Below are positions 44,863 through 52,388 of a stretch of DNA of 64,000 nucleotides, piece by piece. The stretch lies in NCBI RefSeq assembly GCF_030013205.1, contig NZ_CP122649.1; one strand, given 5' to 3'. The stretch is from Escherichia coli (GTDB lineage Bacteria; Pseudomonadota; Gammaproteobacteria; Enterobacterales; Enterobacteriaceae). Position numbers and translations under genes: made by a program. The stretch's first letter is position 1, and each line of letters starts with the position of its first letter. Under the pieces are notes generated by a model that was not told the DNA's origin, did no database searches, and saw only the letters and a list, made by a program, of their open reading frames with translations.

Positions 44863-45017
44863 TCCACGTGTCTTCACTGTGCTGACTCCTTTCACACATG
44901 GTTCACACATTGAGAGGCCTATCCCTCTTTATCAGCCAGGCATACCGAAACTGTCGGTAGTTTTACGGGAACGGGCAACTGCCCCCCTACCTGATAAAGT
45001 GGTGTTCTCCCCCAAAA

Positions 45018-45242
45018 TTAATCGTATTCCCCATCCACTACCGGCTCAGTCGTAATTTCATATTTCACTCCGCCGGGTACATCCAACGCTTTAGCGACGG
45101 ACTCACACAGCAATGACAAATCATTCAGGGTCATTGGGTATTCAACTTCCAGGCTGTGCAGTGCATTGGCGCTGGCAGCAGCAGCCTTGTCAGCATGACA
45201 GGCATTAAAAACGAAAACGGTGGTTTTTTCTTGAATAGGCAT
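45018..45242 (-). CDS. 74-aa protein, paralog of 38917..39141
   Basis: Shared block EYPMTLNDLSLLCESVAKA. Confidence 0.55.
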   Translation of the reverse strand: MPIQEKTTVFVFNACHADKAAAASANALHSLEVEYPMTLNDLSLLCESVAKALDVPGGVKYEITTEPVVDGEYD

Positions 45243-45328
45243 AGTGCAATCCTCTGAATAATTAGCCCTGTGATCAGGGCGGTTTTTGATTAAATTTAAA
45301 TGTTCGTTTTCAATAATTAGTGAATCTG

Positions 45329-45793
45329 TTAATCGGGTTGTGACTTATCATTTTCTCCAACCGAAGTGCTGTCGAGAAATGACCATTCTTGTTTGGGGCT
45401 TTTATATAATGCACTAGCCTCAGTACTCATCCATGACTCACAGGCTTTATAAGTCATGCCTTCCTCTCTAACGCGGTCCTTAAAATACGCCCAGGCTTGC
45501 AGATCAAGCGGCTGATACTCTTTCAGCGACTGGTCAAGCCTTTCCTTCCAGATTTTCTTCCGATGAGTAAAATGAGGAAAAGCCAGGAATGCATAACTAC
45601 CTGCAACAAAAAAAAAGAACAGGAGTCCGCCCCATAGAGAATGTTTGAAAAACACCAGTCCTGGGAAAATCCATGCCACAATGGCAACAAATAAAAGAAG
45701 GTGCTCCTTCCCAGTAGGTTTATTAAAATGCCAGGAAATTGCAATACACTTTAATTTACTAAAGTGATTTTGTTTCTCCTTAATATCGGTCAT
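45329..45793 (-). CDS. membrane protein (154 aa)
   Basis: Two TM helices; palindrome site about 50 bp upstream. Confidence 0.55.
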   Translation of the reverse strand: MTDIKEKQNHFSKLKCIAISWHFNKPTGKEHLLLFVAIVAWIFPGLVFFKHSLWGGLLFFFFVAGSYAFLAFPHFTHRKKIWKERLDQSLKEYQPLDLQAWAYFKDRVREEGMTYKACESWMSTEASALYKSPKQEWSFLDSTSVGENDKSQPD

Positions 45794-45840
45794 ATATCAG
45801 TCCTTACTTATAAAAAAATGGTTATTATTAGTCTGATGTA

Positions 45841-45851
45841 AAAGTTACTTT
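45841..45851. promoter_or_regulatory. AAAGTWACTTT palindrome site
   Basis: Exact match about 50 bp upstream of 45329..45793. Confidence 0.6.
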
Positions 45852-45975
45852 TCAAAACAGTCCCTTTAACGAATTCCGCACCTGCGCTCATTACAACACA
45901 CACCATTCGGCGCTTTTTCCGTTAACGGGGCTATTTTCACGTTTTTTGCACGTATGTCTGATTTTGCTGGTGGGC

Positions 45976-48405
45976 TCACGCCAGCACGCGGACCATACGT
46001 TTCAACAGAGGCCTTAACAACGCCGCCGTCCTCTCCCGGCATTCATCCACATGCCGGAACCCCGTCTTTTTCGAAGACTGGGGGCCGGATAACATCCGCA
46101 GCTCCCAGATGACTTCCCGTAAGGTTCCTTCGCGCTCCGGCGAAATACACCCGGCTAATGTCTCCAGAAAGCGTTTTCTTACGGCCCGGTAATACAGACG
46201 TTCTTCCGGTTGCTGTGACGAAATCCGCAGGTTACAGAGGGTCAGGACAGCGTCAAGAGTCCTTGCCTTCAGTTCGTCTCCCGTCCGGGCCAGATGTAGC
46301 TGTTGTTCTGTCTCCAGTTGCGTCGTTATCCACCCCCCCAGAGGGGTTTTGTTGTAGGTGTGCAGTGCCACACAGGCCGCAACACAGCACCAGAAGCGCA
46401 GTTTCTGCCGCTGCCCCCGCAGTTTGCGGGCTACGAGCAAGCGATAATCGCTGTCGGTCAGGATCTTGAAACGGCGGCTGGCGAGCAGAGACGGCAGCGG
46501 CGTCTGGTCGTTAATGCCAAGACGTGAATAGGCCTGCCCGCGTTGAGCGAGTCGATGGTACACCGCACCTTTCCCCCGCGAAATTCGGACGGCGCCGTAT
46601 CTAAGCAGGTACTGTGCCGCCGCCACAGGGGTAAACTCACCGTCAGACACACGCTGGCGTAATCCGTCATATTCATGCCAGATAATCCAGGATGCCGTGT
46701 CTTCATCGACCGTCAGCTCATCCTCTTCTTCGAATGCAACGATGTTCAGGCCTTCCCCGCTACTCATCAGACTGCGGGAAGCTCGCTCATCCTCCCGACC
46801 GTCAAAATAGGCTATTTCGGATGACGGATCGGACAGCCCGTCAAATGACGTCCCGATACGGCCTTCCGGCAACTTCATCCAGCGTGGTGCTGGCATCGGC
46901 GTGCGGGGTACTGGTTGCATAGCTGGCTCATCGTCGAGAAGATCCAGTGCCCCCCCTTCCCACACCTGGCGGTAAAGTTCAATGGCACGAAATGGGCGCG
47001 GGTTAAAGCAATGCAGTGACCAGAGAAAGTCGATATGCAGCACGTTAGCCTCCTGCACCAGTCGAAACTGCGGCTCCGACATGCGGCGGTTATGCGCGGT
47101 ATCTTCGATCTCGCCTGAAAGTAACTTTTCATGCACCGCTGCGGCCCGCTGAGCCTCCACGTAATCGAGGCTGCAACAGATATGGAACAGTCTTTCGGTC
47201 AGGGACGACGAGAACACATTGGGCTGAAGACGCACATACCCGCCCTCAAACACTTTGCGTCCGATATAATCCCGAAGGCTCCAGTCGTACTGAATTTTGG
47301 TCAGGAAACGCTGAAGGCGGTTGAGACCAGCCTGGTAGCCGTACTTCTCAGGGTCAGTGCGGAGTAAGGTTTCCATCGAGTGATCAATGCCGACGGCGCA
47401 GCATAGCGAGCATCCATAGCGAGCGCCGCAGGCAGAAGACCGGACAGTGGATTTCTCCGGCGTCCAGATACATTCCCCGGTCGCGTCTTTGTAAAGCGTG
47501 GCGAGGCTGAAGTTGTCCGGCAAAAAGCTTGGCAGCGGAAATCGCGCCAGAGAACCACAGGCCATCAGAAATGACCAGATATCCTGTGCCCGCCACTCTT
47601 TCACCGGGTACAGTTCGCCGCCGTGCTCCGTGAGCGAGACGCTGTCCGCCTGCCCGCCCATTCTTAGGATGTTGTCTGCCCGACGGGCGCTCTCATCATC
47701 GCGGGAACCCAGCATCAGGCACACTTTGTTGCGGACAGAAGCAGGTGCATTTTTCAGATAACGGGCTTTGGCCTGGCGCAGTGGAGAACGCTTTAGATCT
47801 GTAGCGCATTGACGCGTAGAAGAATTTGTCCAGGTTGGAAGTCCACGCCCGGTCAGAATGCGTCCGACCCAGCTCTGGGTCATGGACGGGCGGGCCACAA
47901 GGACGGTCAAAGGCAGTTCTTGTTCGGCAATAAAGGCTCTGAGCTGGCTGAGAACCTGCGTGGCCTGATGATGCATCTCAGGGTTTTCAATCAGGGTGTC
48001 AGACATCTGAATGAAGTGGTGCTGGCTGACGTTCGACCCGTTTCGTACTGCACGGATCAAGGCCATAAGGAACAAGTGCAGTAGCGAGTGAGAGTCTTTC
48101 CCGCCGCTGTAGCCGACGCACATGGTCCAGCCTTCGGTAATCGCATGATAAATGGCACTGGTTGCCGTCGTCACGCGCGAAGCGAGACTGACCGGCTCAC
48201 CGGCATCAGTATAATTCAGATCCGCATCGGTCTTCAGTGTCTGCCAGACATCGCCCCATTTATCCTGCGTCAGAATGGCAGCGTTAGCCGCCTCAGAAAA
48301 TTGAATTTCTGAGGGTAATTCAAGGAATGTTTCTTTCATTTCGATATACATATTATTTCCTGAATTTGGCTTTCGCTGTATTGTCGCGATATTTATTAAA
48401 TCCAT
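45976..48405 (-). CDS. PP-loop ATP pyrophosphatase-like protein (PAPS reductase/DndC-like N-terminal domain) with large C-terminal extension
   Basis: 809 aa; CVGYSGGKDSHSLLHL PP-loop; Cys cluster CGARYGCSLCC. Confidence 0.7.
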   Translation of the reverse strand: MDLINIATIQRKPNSGNNMYIEMKETFLELPSEIQFSEAANAAILTQDKWGDVWQTLKTDADLNYTDAGEPVSLASRVTTATSAIYHAITEGWTMCVGYSGGKDSHSLLHLFLMALIRAVRNGSNVSQHHFIQMSDTLIENPEMHHQATQVLSQLRAFIAEQELPLTVLVARPSMTQSWVGRILTGRGLPTWTNSSTRQCATDLKRSPLRQAKARYLKNAPASVRNKVCLMLGSRDDESARRADNILRMGGQADSVSLTEHGGELYPVKEWRAQDIWSFLMACGSLARFPLPSFLPDNFSLATLYKDATGECIWTPEKSTVRSSACGARYGCSLCCAVGIDHSMETLLRTDPEKYGYQAGLNRLQRFLTKIQYDWSLRDYIGRKVFEGGYVRLQPNVFSSSLTERLFHICCSLDYVEAQRAAAVHEKLLSGEIEDTAHNRRMSEPQFRLVQEANVLHIDFLWSLHCFNPRPFRAIELYRQVWEGGALDLLDDEPAMQPVPRTPMPAPRWMKLPEGRIGTSFDGLSDPSSEIAYFDGREDERASRSLMSSGEGLNIVAFEEEDELTVDEDTASWIIWHEYDGLRQRVSDGEFTPVAAAQYLLRYGAVRISRGKGAVYHRLAQRGQAYSRLGINDQTPLPSLLASRRFKILTDSDYRLLVARKLRGQRQKLRFWCCVAACVALHTYNKTPLGGWITTQLETEQQLHLARTGDELKARTLDAVLTLCNLRISSQQPEERLYYRAVRKRFLETLAGCISPEREGTLREVIWELRMLSGPQSSKKTGFRHVDECRERTAALLRPLLKRMVRVLA
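47118..47128. promoter_or_regulatory. AAAGTWACTTT palindrome site
   Basis: Exact match inside the PP-loop gene. Confidence 0.5.
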
Positions 48406-48527
48406 TTAATATCTTCAGCGCAATATGTGAAGCTAAAAATAGTTAAATTGAAATCATGCCAATTTAATTAAATAACACTGAACAAATAAAATTACGCGGC
48501 AATAAATATATTATGTTCTCCACGCTC

Positions 48528-48977
48528 TCACGAATACTGCTGGGTAATTAAAACCGTCGCATTTGATTCCAGCTCTGCCAACGGAATTAGGGGCGTATTG
48601 AGCATCATGTCATCGCCGCAATGACGGGGTACAGCCGTCAGATGAAATGATTCTTTCATGACCCGGATGGAAGTTGTTTCCGTGCGGCAGGAGGGCATTA
48701 CGTCCCGGAGCATCGTTTCCTGTCCGCTGCTGTCACTTTCAATAAACGCAGCCTGCGACATGAGAACCTCAATGTCCTCTTCCAATGTTTCGGACCAGTG
48801 GCAGTCATAGAAGAAAAACTCGGCGGCGTACAAATCATTTTCTTTCACGTATGCCGCCAGTTCACGGATACGCTTAGCCAGCGACGTATCAATGGAAAAG
48901 AAGACGCTTTGCGGGACATCACTCGCAAATTCATTGATGCAGCTAGCGGACAAAATCAGGATTTTATTGGTCATTTT
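48528..48977 (-). CDS. hypothetical protein (about 149 aa)
   Basis: Start at MTNKILILSAS preferred. Confidence 0.5.
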   Translation of the reverse strand, partial: KMTNKILILSASCINEFASDVPQSVFFSIDTSLAKRIRELAAYVKENDLYAAEFFFYDCHWSETLEEDIEVLMSQAAFIESDSSGQETMLRDVMPSCRTETTSIRVMKESFHLTAVPRHCGDDMMLNTPLIPLAELESNATVLITQQYS

Positions 48978-49021
48978 CAGCTCTCCATGCCACCGGCTGT
49001 TCCGGTGGCAATCAGGGATTA

Positions 49022-49828
49022 TCAGGCAGTCACGGGGCACAATTCGTCAAGTGAAGGCAGTAATTTGCTCAGGCTTTCGTACACGACGGGCATCAATTCA
49101 GTGACGCTGTGAAGCGCCATGCTGGTATTGTCTTCTTCGCTGAGAATGATAACTCCATCCTCACCAGGATTGTCGGGCGTGCTCTCGTCAGAGGCCAGGC
49201 GGTGGCGTGCAACGTCATAAGCCGATTCTGATTTTTTGCAGCTCATCAGATAGCATTGAGTGTATGTGTATTCGTGGTTGTACTGGTTCACTTTCACCAA
49301 CGCATACTGAACACCGGCATCATGAGCTTCGTTCATCAGGCGAGAAAAATTAAAGCCTTCTTCGTAGTGGTGTGTATCTTTAGTCACCACAATAGTCGCA
49401 CCGCCGAACTCGTTTTCGCGTGGTCGGTCGCAGACGAAAGCGGCATTGATTGTGACCATCTCAGGCAGGTTAAACACCGACAACACGGCAGTTGTTACCG
49501 CGATAGCGTGGTCGAGGTTAATGCTTTCATCATGGCAGATTGCCAGGCCTTTACCGGTGATTTCCGCTTTGAGTTCCAGCTCGTAATTGTTTTCTGGTGA
49601 CTCCGACTGACCAAAAGTCGGCTCAAACGGATCGCACTCCGGGTGGTTCTGAATAATACCCAGGACAAGCAATTCAGTGAGGGAACACTCTGAAACCGGT
49701 TTAGACAGCAAGTGTTCACCTTCCGCCACATCCGTGTCTGTAACATACGCAATCGCGTCCAGTGCCATCTGTGCCTGTTCCTGTGAACAGAGAATTGTGA
49801 AGGATGCCTGAGTGTAATTGTTCGCCAT
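49022..49828 (-). CDS. hypothetical acidic protein (268 aa)
   Basis: First gene of the PP-loop operon. Confidence 0.55.
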   Translation of the reverse strand: MANNYTQASFTILCSQEQAQMALDAIAYVTDTDVAEGEHLLSKPVSECSLTELLVLGIIQNHPECDPFEPTFGQSESPENNYELELKAEITGKGLAICHDESINLDHAIAVTTAVLSVFNLPEMVTINAAFVCDRPRENEFGGATIVVTKDTHHYEEGFNFSRLMNEAHDAGVQYALVKVNQYNHEYTYTQCYLMSCKKSESAYDVARHRLASDESTPDNPGEDGVIILSEEDNTSMALHSVTELMPVVYESLSKLLPSLDELCPVTA

Positions 49829-50375
49829 TGCATAACTCCTTATTTAATTAAATGTGATTGCTGTCTGTGAATAGATAATATCAAAACAGATACCTGCACC
49901 TAATAACCAATAATGAAATATGTTCGAAATTTTTATAGAGCAGACAGCGCCATATTTAATAATCCAACTTTTATTCTGGATACGGTGTAAAATAAATATA
50001 CGGGAAAACAAAAAACCGCCACAAGGGCGGAATTTATTAGACGGGAAAGATTTGGTTATACGGTATGTGTCAGGGAGGAAGCAATGAGCCTGTCTGGTAA
50101 CAGTGATTGTAGGGACGCAGACGAAATAACAAGCACCTGATCCAAGTGCGCTACACCTTCGTCGATATGTTGCTGGAATGCCGCTTCAGCTTCACCGCAG
50201 GAGTCCGCTTCGACCAGCATCACCTCTTCCTCATCATCAAACATCATGCGGCCTGAGATAATATACAGTCGGCTTAAGTCTGGGGTATTTACAGCGATGC
50301 CCTGTTAGTTAATCATCATTTTTCTCCGCCTTCAATTTTTAAATTTGTCAGTTCTGCTACGTGTAAAAAACAGCA

Positions 50376-50708
50376 TCAGCCCTGTAAACCCGGACAGGTA
50401 TCAACGTAGCTCATTGGTTTGCCGATCGCGGCGCTCAGGCGAAGGATTTCGCCGATGGAGACGTACCGAAGCATTTCCGAACGCCCGTGTTTCTGGTATT
50501 CATCCACCGACATAGTGCGCCAGTCCTTGTGCGGTGCGGTTTTGCACAACTGCCAGTTGTTGGCAGTGGTCGGGCGACGCAGGACATATACACCCAGCGA
50601 AGGCGTGAGGCCACTGCCGAATGCCTGCTCCACCACAATACGTACTTCAGAGCCGTCGGGGCGTTTCAGTGTCTGAGTAATTTTAGTAATGAGCTGTTCG
50701 GATTCCAT
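50376..50708 (-). CDS. hypothetical protein (110 aa)
   Basis: ORF, no motif recognised. Confidence 0.5.
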   Translation of the reverse strand: MESEQLITKITQTLKRPDGSEVRIVVEQAFGSGLTPSLGVYVLRRPTTANNWQLCKTAPHKDWRTMSVDEYQKHGRSEMLRYVSIGEILRLSAAIGKPMSYVDTCPGLQG

Positions 50709-51206: not shown

Positions 51207-52388
51207 CTACTCCCAGCGATAAGGGGTAAAATAGTCCTCGTTAACAGCAAGAAATTCGGTCAGGGAATGCATCGCCTTCGTGTCATATGCCGTCACAATA
51301 AAACGGTATCCGTCCACCGTTTCGATGTAGCTGATCCCCCGTGGCGTGCAACTGGATTTCACAACTTCCGCCGTCATCATAAACTGCCCTTGCGGAAATT
51401 CCGGTGACAGGTAGATAAAGCCAGTGGTGGCTGATGACGGGTTGGCATTCATCAGCACGCCGTTAAATTGCTTTCCGTGCCGCGCCGGAATCAACGCGCT
51501 CCCCGCTGTCGCCTGAGTCATCAACTGGCGGATCAGGGTTTCCTCTTTATCTGAGCTGTAGGCGCGAACATCATTTTCAGCCCCGGAGCGTGAGTAGACG
51601 CCGACATGAGCAAGACGTCGGTACTCGTTACGCATATAGGCATGACAGGATGCACCGGCTCGCCCCTGAAGAGTGACGCCAAAGTCTTCACATAACATCA
51701 GTACCTGGCGCAGGTTTTTGTCATAGACCGTGGCAGAGAGCGCCAGGTTATAGCTGATGAATGTCAGCTCAAAAACCCGGGTATGTGCGTCACTAAGGTG
51801 TGCCTCCATGCGGATCACTGGTTTCTCCGTCATTGGAAACGGCGTACCGGCCAAGCAGTACGAGGTAACATCGCTAAAACACTCGTCGATCACACTGGCA
51901 ATGACCGTATCGGCGTCAATGACAGCCGGAGCTGGAACATAAATCTGAAACTGTCCTTCAGTGCCCGGTTGGATCAGGACGGGGTATAGACGCGGGGAAT
52001 TGAGTTGTTCGCAGTCGGCATTGATCAGTTCTGTCCAACCGGGTTTTCCGGTGGGAGCATCAAGGCGAAGACCCAGGTTATCGCAGAAGTCGACGATCTG
52101 GCGGGAGTGCTCCACCATCACTGCCCCGGAGAGTGTCAGACCGTGCGTAACCATCTGCATCTCACTCGTCCGGGTCTGGGAGTTCTGGGACCAGGGCTGT
52201 AATGAAAGCGTCGTCCGACTTAAGGAGGGAATGATGGTTTCATTCAGAGGTTCAATAAGCTGGCAATGCGCATACAGCCGGGTGGCGAGGAAGTCAAATA
52301 TGAAGCTTGCCTGTTGTTTTGTGCTGGCCTGAATATAAAACATCGCATCCATGCCTGAATCCCGGGATGAAATACCGAAAAGTTTCAT
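51207..52388 (-). CDS. hypothetical protein (393 aa), in the antitoxin position after a HigB-like gene
   Basis: Starts 8 nt after the HigB-like stop; no HTH recognised. Confidence 0.6.
   Translation of the reverse strand: MKLFGISSRDSGMDAMFYIQASTKQQASFIFDFLATRLYAHCQLIEPLNETIIPSLSRTTLSLQPWSQNSQTRTSEMQMVTHGLTLSGAVMVEHSRQIVDFCDNLGLRLDAPTGKPGWTELINADCEQLNSPRLYPVLIQPGTEGQFQIYVPAPAVIDADTVIASVIDECFSDVTSYCLAGTPFPMTEKPVIRMEAHLSDAHTRVFELTFISYNLALSATVYDKNLRQVLMLCEDFGVTLQGRAGASCHAYMRNEYRRLAHVGVYSRSGAENDVRAYSSDKEETLIRQLMTQATAGSALIPARHGKQFNGVLMNANPSSATTGFIYLSPEFPQGQFMMTAEVVKSSCTPRGISYIETVDGYRFIVTAYDTKAMHSLTEFLAVNEDYFTPYRWE

Follow-up and report, generated by a model that had tools for sequence, protein, structure and literature searches.

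A plasmid-backbone PP-loop enzyme with a DndC-type core: a candidate nucleic-acid modification enzyme of IncHI1 plasmids and their relatives

The stretch of Escherichia coli DNA analysed here, which is 64 kb long and is called the window in the following, carries between positions 45018 and 49828 five neighbouring genes on the minus strand, and the largest of these codes for a PP-loop ATP pyrophosphatase of the DndC family, referred to below as the enzyme. Positions 45000–49900 are 100% identical to IncHI1 conjugative plasmids, among them pHCM1 from Salmonella Typhi CT18, which identifies the window as backbone of an IncHI1 plasmid. In RefSeq, pHCM1 has the same five genes annotated, the large one under the name "phosphoadenosine phosphosulfate reductase family protein" (PAPS reductase family). 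The five co-directional open reading frames (ORFs) described in the initial annotation of this DNA were all found again in the ORF list and in the RefSeq record of pHCM1 (Table 1), and the two motifs reported for the largest of them, SGGKDS and CGARYGCSLCC, are present in its translation. The length of 809 amino acids (aa) given there holds for the maximal ORF, which extends from 45976 to 48405. The functional start of the gene is, however, most likely at 48351, since an AGGA Shine–Dalgarno sequence lies about 7 nucleotides (nt) upstream, the start of the IncHI2 orthologue aligns with this position and RefSeq uses the same start. The resulting protein has 791 aa, and residue numbers refer to this form.

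When the orthologues of IncHI1 and IncHI2 are compared, the ratio of nonsynonymous to synonymous substitution rates (dN/dS), read with synonymous sites at or near saturation, is 0.05 for the enzyme, 0.06 for the 268-aa protein, 0.25 for the 148-aa protein and 0.31 for the 74-aa protein. Thus, judged from these ratios, the four ORFs are real genes, and the enzyme gene is under strong purifying selection. The GC content of the enzyme gene (window 46000–48000) is about 57–58% versus 42–46% in the flanking genes, which may reflect a different origin or a compositional constraint.

That the large protein is a PP-loop enzyme of the DndC/PAPS reductase type, as proposed initially, is supported by profile matches as well as by motif alignments. 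The protein matches the PADLOC profile of DndC with an E-value of 2e-37 and the NCBIfam model of DndC (TIGR03183) with 8e-33. The score of the latter match, 113.9 bits, does not reach the curated cut-off of 290.4 bits, and with the model PRK06850 the protein obtains 128.4 bits at a cut-off of 536. The PADLOC model "Type II methyltransferase" includes the same domain (4.5e-23), which ties the enzyme to DNA modification. Further matches are weak, namely to Pfam PAPS_reduct (PF01507, 3e-5), to BrxP in PADLOC (1.8e-5) and, over the PP-loop, to the NCBIfam models of TtcA and TilS. A search of the PDB with the sequence returned weak PP-loop matches to FAD synthase and nothing else. The AlphaFold2 model of the enzyme has a predicted local distance difference test score (pLDDT) of 87.6.

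The alignments reveal which residues are kept. No variation is seen at the PP-loop residues S82, G84, K85, D86 and S87 in 38 family members or in true DndC proteins, nor at the cysteines C182, C294, C308, C314 and C317 in the family or in six true DndC sequences. Comparison with the same six sequences identified the further invariant motifs DT..E.P, LG.R..ES..R and DKS. C182 and the cysteine cluster presumably form the iron–sulfur (Fe-S) and sulfur-relay site. The similarity to DndC and PRK06850 spans residues ~60–445, and the identity to true DndC amounts to 22–23%. Judged by these profiles and motifs, the catalytic core is of the DndC type and the protein belongs to a separate clade. The enzyme should not be filed as DndC, as it differs from DndC in the curated threshold, in the partner genes and in the architecture.

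The C-terminal region is peculiar to this family. The initial annotation had regarded it as a region of roughly 450 aa that belongs to no recognised family. The latter point is borne out, as residues 445–791 gave neither a Pfam match nor a fold match in the PDB. The length has to be corrected, since the similarity to DndC reaches approximately residue 462 of the 809-aa ORF and the unassigned part therefore comprises about 350 aa. Two parts can be distinguished in it, a conserved middle module (residues ~445–645) and a basic helical tail (~646–791) with an isoelectric point (pI) of 9.8. Among 1.84 billion proteins the C-terminal region matches 67 representatives only, and in full-length proteins the matching part is always found downstream of the PP-loop domain. 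The last ~150 residues, which make up the helical tail, are restricted to close relatives.

Relatives of the enzyme are encoded by 2,794 of 72,556 plasmid records searched with tblastn, 2,159 of them conjugative. Among the listed matches the enzyme is 99–100% identical within IncHI1, ~75% identical in IncHI2 and ~48% identical in IncC plasmids, and replicons of Burkholderia, Pseudomonas, Shewanella and Vibrio carry more distant forms. The IncHI1, IncHI2, IncC and Klebsiella plasmids that were inspected are all typed MOBH. A phage collection contained eight matching records, one of them with a long match. The match statistics of the latter, a Salmonella record, equal those of the IncC matches, and it is taken to be an IncC plasmid, so that no copy of the long form in a true phage was seen in this collection. 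The enzyme family is thus nearly confined to large plasmids, most of which are conjugative.

Table 1. Features of the window that are referred to in the text (window positions)
Feature	Position	Strand	Basis or remark
DndC-family PP-loop ATP pyrophosphatase (the enzyme), 791 aa	45976..48351	-	ORF, RefSeq start and name, profile matches; maximal ORF to 48405, 809 aa
PP-loop motif SGGKDS, residues 82–87	48091..48108	-	sequence; invariance in alignments
Cysteine cluster C294 ... C308-G-A-R-Y-G-C314-S-L-C317-C318	47398..47472	-	family and DndC alignments
Family-specific C-terminal region, residues 445–791	45979..47019	-	no Pfam match, no PDB fold match
268-aa acidic protein, pI 4.4	49022..49828	-	ORF, RefSeq; first gene of the probable unit
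148-aa acidic protein	48528..48974 (ATG form)	-	ORF, RefSeq; extension with GTG start reaches 49040 (48528–49040)
154-aa protein, two predicted membrane segments	45329..45793	-	ORF, Kyte–Doolittle hydropathy; probably outside the unit of the enzyme
74-aa acidic protein	45018..45242	-	ORF, paralogues; member of a multi-copy small-protein family
Two further paralogues of the 74-aa protein	38917–39141, 38676–38882	-	
Terminator-like GC hairpin followed by a T-run	50016..50030	-	sequence; 3' of the upstream 63-aa gene
110-aa protein	50376–50708	-	two genes upstream of the 268-aa gene
393-aa protein	51207–52388	-	
HigB/RelE-type toxin, 98 aa	52397–52693	-	
401-aa "DNA-binding protein"	31659–32864	-	
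Palindrome AAAGTTACTTT	45841..45851	.	candidate operator in the 182-nt gap between the enzyme gene and the 154-aa gene, at a distance of 48 nt from the latter
Palindrome AAAGTAACTTT	47118..47128	.	within the enzyme gene, encodes ..EKLLS..
Palindrome sites 1–10	3671, 8206, 8288, 13825, 16463, 16903, 17388, 22124, 23854, 28543		
Palindrome sites 11–19	32959, 33077, 39603, 45841, 47118, 51006, 53940, 61087, 62425		
mobI	17585–18070		
MobH relaxase	18800–21835		
Presumed intergenic region with the origin of transfer (oriT), proximal to mobI	16827–17585		

The four neighbours of the enzyme could not be assigned to any family, in line with the initial annotation: none of them has a match in NCBIfam, PADLOC or PHROGs, nor do the 268-aa and 148-aa proteins, which were those covered by the Pfam search, match a Pfam family. 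The acidic character claimed for the 268-aa protein was confirmed (pI ~4.4) and applies likewise to the 148-aa and 74-aa proteins; the 154-aa protein, described as a membrane protein, indeed has two hydrophobic segments in a Kyte–Doolittle scan. It had further been proposed that the five genes form one operon. This proposal stands in part: the genes are co-directional, and the 268-aa, 148-aa and enzyme genes are linked in the IncHI-type backbones, but the set of five is not conserved across relatives. The intergenic gaps measure 47, 176, 182 and 86 nt and no convincing terminator was found within the stretch 45018–49828, while the hairpin upstream of the 268-aa gene is likely the upstream boundary of a unit that starts with this gene.

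Comparison with other plasmids helps to delimit the unit. IncHI2 plasmids keep the 268-aa, the 148-aa and the enzyme gene, which are directly followed by the homologue of the 74-aa gene. In a third, IncHI-like backbone (L007) with an enzyme of 54% identity, the same three genes are kept, the 268-aa gene being duplicated, and a gene of the 74-aa family is found one small gene beyond the enzyme gene. Among the loci compared, the 268-aa and 148-aa genes lie upstream of the enzyme gene in these three backbones only, and the 154-aa gene is restricted to IncHI1, without a homologue in IncHI2 or the other loci. The 74-aa family has three paralogues in the gene array of the window in addition to its homologues in IncHI2 and L007. 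As the wider region of IncHI2 is collinear with IncHI1, the synteny around the enzyme gene may reflect simple inheritance.

Conservation of the neighbourhood was not found outside the IncHI-type backbones. None of the four neighbours was found beside the enzyme gene in any of the ten contexts compared there, which are IncC, plasmids or plasmid-like contigs of Klebsiella, Moellerella and Photorhabdus, a clade with an enzyme of 669 aa, and replicons of Burkholderia, Shewanella, Pseudomonas and Vibrio. In iterative searches of the neighbours against 13 other loci no homologue was detected outside the IncHI-type backbones except for the 110-aa protein, which itself has no family match. Its homologue in a Klebsiella michiganensis plasmid (L004 6519–6884; enzyme 45% identical) is encoded directly upstream of the enzyme gene, and in L007 it is found elsewhere in the array. 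Taken together, we suggest that the 268-aa, 148-aa and enzyme genes probably make up one unit and the 154-aa and 74-aa genes another, and that the 268-aa and 148-aa genes probably are co-transcribed and code for accessory factors specific to IncHI.

The division into two units is also suggested by a short palindrome. The sequence AAAGTWACTTT, often in the form GAAAAGTWACTTTTC, occurs 19 times in the window versus 0.03 copies expected, and 14 of the 19 copies are intergenic although ~76% of the window is coding according to an approximate gene list. The initial annotation had pointed out two of them, at 45841 and 47118, and both are present. An equivalent of the first is found in IncHI2, where the gap 3' of the enzyme gene holds the palindrome as well (L002 9492), 143 nt before the 74-aa homologue. 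An operator-like palindrome in this gap of both IncHI1 and IncHI2 suggests a separately controlled downstream unit, and the 154-aa and 74-aa genes are more likely such a unit behind a palindromic operator than a part of the enzyme's unit. The orthologous position of the copy at 47118 has one mismatch in IncHI2 (L002 8221), and therefore this copy may be incidental to the coding sequence. A further palindrome of IncHI2 lies, again at an equivalent place, upstream of the gene for the homologous 110-aa protein. The IncC locus and the distant loci searched yielded none. By analogy with the KorB sites of plasmid RK2, which are operators of a plasmid-wide regulator, the set of palindromes looks like the operators of such a regulator. 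A candidate for the binding protein is the 401-aa protein, which is weakly ParB-like (TIGR00180, 3e-5) and distantly similar (BLASTP 4e-6) to the product of a ParB-like gene that a Klebsiella plasmid has upstream of its enzyme gene; the palindromes at 32959 and 33077 lie ~95 and 213 nt upstream of the start of its gene.

The enzyme gene is embedded in an array of ~25 kb (window ~27600–53200), in which all annotated genes are on the minus strand and point toward the Tra1/oriT region. Most of these genes code for small proteins of no assigned function. In addition the array contains hok, a HigB/RelE toxin gene, genes for DUF905, DUF957 and DUF3085 proteins and for the ParB-like protein and, ~2 kb downstream of the enzyme gene and kept in IncHI2, an HNH endonuclease gene together with a DUF6012 gene. 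The part of the array that was compared is collinear with IncHI2. The toxin gene is followed after 8 nt by the gene of the 393-aa protein, which has no NCBIfam match and takes the place of a small antitoxin; this pairing is kept in L007 with 98 and 391 aa. Coordinates on the Tra1 side are corrected for insertions and deletions relative to plasmid p30155-1 (L009), the shifts of its coordinates versus the window being +651, −1908 and −2442 in successive blocks. Between ~30600 and 38700 the window is without the ISEcp1-MBL insertion of p30155-1 and has ~2.4 kb of extra sequence before 38.7 kb; at roughly the equivalent place pHCM1 carries an IS1 transposase gene and corA.

In its layout the array is similar to the leading or establishment regions of plasmids. 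A family of 73 members named "PAPS reductase" (645), which may correspond to the clade of the enzyme, is among the "Other unknown leading families" of Samuel et al. (2024; PMC11541004, supplementary file 3). The other contexts of the enzyme gene are of a similar kind. An orphan DNA methyltransferase is encoded a few genes upstream in IncHI2 and in IncC. In the 669-aa clade the enzyme gene is directly preceded by a DGQHR/DndB-like gene (DGQHR domain 152 bits), with an N6-methylase-like gene and an anti-restriction gene (PF03230) in the vicinity. Plasmids of Klebsiella and Moellerella have a ParB-like gene 3–4 kb upstream in the same array, and further contexts contain ParB-like, DnaB, RadC, DUF4942 and PRTRC genes.

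How might the enzyme serve the plasmid? The explanation that we favour, although tentatively, is that it is an ATP- and Fe-S-dependent nucleic-acid modification enzyme that aids plasmid establishment or the evasion of restriction. The enzyme would use ATP to adenylate a nucleic-acid substrate. Sulfur would then be taken from a cysteine persulfide, probably provided by the host IscS, and would be relayed through the Fe-S/cysteine site. Binding of the substrate would be the task of the enzyme's own C-terminal modules, which would thus replace the role that DndD and DndE have in Dnd systems. Such a modification-only function would mark plasmid DNA, or possibly host nucleic acid, helping the plasmid to become established and to escape restriction in new hosts, and the enzyme would work side by side with the orphan methyltransferases whose genes lie near its own in related plasmids. 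A more specific form of this proposal, in which a single self-sufficient polypeptide carries out a sulfur modification, or another adenylation-dependent modification, of nucleic acid and so marks incoming IncHI1, IncHI2 and IncC plasmid DNA against restriction, seems to us conceivable but rather doubtful.

Several observations weigh against the proposal of a modification enzyme for establishment. The curated DndC threshold is missed, and DndA, DndD, DndE or a cysteine desulfurase are not annotated on the IncHI1 records listed, which comprise positions 1–180,400 of pHCM1, all of its map but ~3.4 kb (180.4–183.8 kb), and the stretch of p30155-1 that matches the window. Phosphorothioation as such is therefore unproven. 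In addition, the locus is interrupted in circulating plasmids: in E. coli, a group of IncHI1 plasmids carries the insertion sequence (IS) IS903B in the interval between the 148-aa and the enzyme gene, and in Enterobacter IncHI2 plasmids the place expected for the 148-aa gene and the PP-loop domain is occupied by an IS5-family element. Thus, the function of the enzyme is dispensable for plasmid maintenance. Fragments alone remain at the IncHI2 locus with the IS5-family element, including a C-terminal ORF of 470 aa. The locus has been struck repeatedly, as seen at the loci L017 (NZ_CP081775.1) and L018 (NZ_CP118568.1). That the gene belongs to a leading region is likewise no more than a possibility. 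A leading region is understood here as the first ~30 ORFs entering the recipient, with the transferred strand as the template; the enzyme gene lies past the relaxase operon, ~28 kb and ~40 ORFs away from the presumed oriT. For the array, oriented as it is, to be transcribed from the transferred strand, mobI would have to enter first, and the literature searched contained no statement on the transfer polarity or nick site of IncHI or MOBH plasmids. Nor did it contain a biochemical or genetic test of a plasmid-borne PAPS-reductase/DndC-like gene.

Other functions have to be weighed against this proposal. IbrA is a PAPS-reductase-like and IbrB a ParB-like protein, and the enzyme could be part of a similar regulatory module, in which the PP-loop protein and a partner of the ParB superfamily control gene expression or DNA handling. 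The DGQHR/DndB-like gene of the 669-aa clade, which belongs to the ParB superfamily, the ParB-like genes upstream in the Klebsiella and Moellerella plasmids and the 401-aa gene of the IncHI1 array are all consistent with such a module. However, no ParB- or DndB-like gene adjoins the enzyme gene in IncHI1, IncHI2 or IncC; the neighbours in the window gave no match that would make them a ParB-superfamily partner (Pfam for the 268-aa and 148-aa proteins, NCBIfam for all four), and the structural model of the 268-aa protein gave no ParB-like match. Moreover, the full set of DndC catalytic residues is kept under strong purifying selection, which argues for an enzyme. We regard a regulatory module as unlikely; the IbrA-like module of the leading region that the initial annotation brought up remains a lead, with a DndB-like neighbour in the 669-aa clade only and not in IncHI1. 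Alternatively, the enzyme could set a Dnd-like mark on self DNA that is read by a restriction partner, and so take part in defence against phages or in the exclusion of rival plasmids. The PADLOC match to DndC and the weak match to BrxP point in this direction, as do the HNH endonuclease and DUF6012 genes nearby and the presence of other defence genes on pHCM1, for example, that of a Shedu nuclease family protein. Against this, no DndFGH, SspE, BREX component or other known effector is annotated beside the enzyme gene in the contexts examined, no gene is linked to it consistently across the enzyme family, and the neighbours are such as usually make up arrays for the establishment and maintenance of plasmids, not defence islands. 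A defence system, too, appears improbable.

A target other than DNA must also be considered. Like TtcA, TtuA or NcsA, the enzyme could thiolate or otherwise modify tRNA or rRNA of the host and thereby reprogramme the host for the plasmid, and the weak matches of the PP-loop to TtcA and TilS would agree with this. The similarity and the cysteine pattern are, however, specifically DndC-like and not TtcA- or TtuA-like, and Pfam recognises no tRNA-binding domain in the enzyme; we consider an RNA-directed function very unlikely. The name given by RefSeq and the weak match to PF01507 could finally suggest an ordinary PAPS reductase of sulfate assimilation (CysH). Yet CysH has ~245 aa compared with the 791 aa of the enzyme, its C-terminal catalytic motif ECG[LIV]H is absent, the cysteine cluster is of the DndC type, and the gene lies on a plasmid with no cys genes nearby. 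This housekeeping role is effectively refuted by these properties and retains hardly any probability.

The plasmids concerned are of practical importance, as IncHI1, IncHI2 and IncC rank among the main vehicles of multidrug resistance in Salmonella, E. coli, Klebsiella and Vibrio. Some 2,800 plasmids of known sequence encode relatives of the enzyme, which the databases name merely "PAPS reductase family protein"; the gene has long been annotated and its family named, and the literature searched contained no functional study. If the enzyme does modify plasmid DNA or host nucleic acid for establishment, this would be a new strategy against restriction and the first demonstration of a DndC-type enzyme that functions in the absence of DndD and DndE, and the enzyme might offer a target for limiting plasmid spread. 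If it acts as a self-sufficient modifier, it would represent a new class of plasmid anti-defence enzymes. If it has no such role, the gene is simply an uncharacterised backbone gene.

Among the known systems, the CysH-type PAPS/APS (adenosine phosphosulfate) reductases and the PAPS-reductase-like domains of FAD synthases differ from the much larger enzyme in the missing CysH motif, in the cysteines and in its plasmid setting, and BrxP of BREX type 4 differs by the weakness of the match and by the lack of annotated brx genes near the enzyme gene. The IbrA/IbrB pair shares with it a DndC/PAPS-reductase-like PP-loop protein on mobile elements, the likeness in context being limited to the 669-aa clade, whereas IncHI1, IncHI2 and IncC lack the adjacent partner gene. 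The anti-defence islands of leading regions (PMC11541004) are similar in having co-directional small genes, hok, toxin–antitoxin genes, DUF905 and methyltransferases, and differ in that the enzyme gene lies ~40 ORFs from the presumed oriT, on the far side of the relaxase operon. By its sequence the closest known family is DndC/DptC (TIGR03183) with SspD as its counterpart in Ssp systems. The enzyme departs from this family in its score below the cut-off and its low identity, in the additional C-terminal residues of no recognised fold, in the lack of annotated dndA, dndB, dndD, dndE or ssp genes on the IncHI1 records and in being nearly confined to plasmid backbones. It shares with DndC, DptC and SspD, over residues ~60–445, the SGGKDS loop, the five aligned cysteines and the motifs DT..E.P, LG.R..ES..R and DKS.

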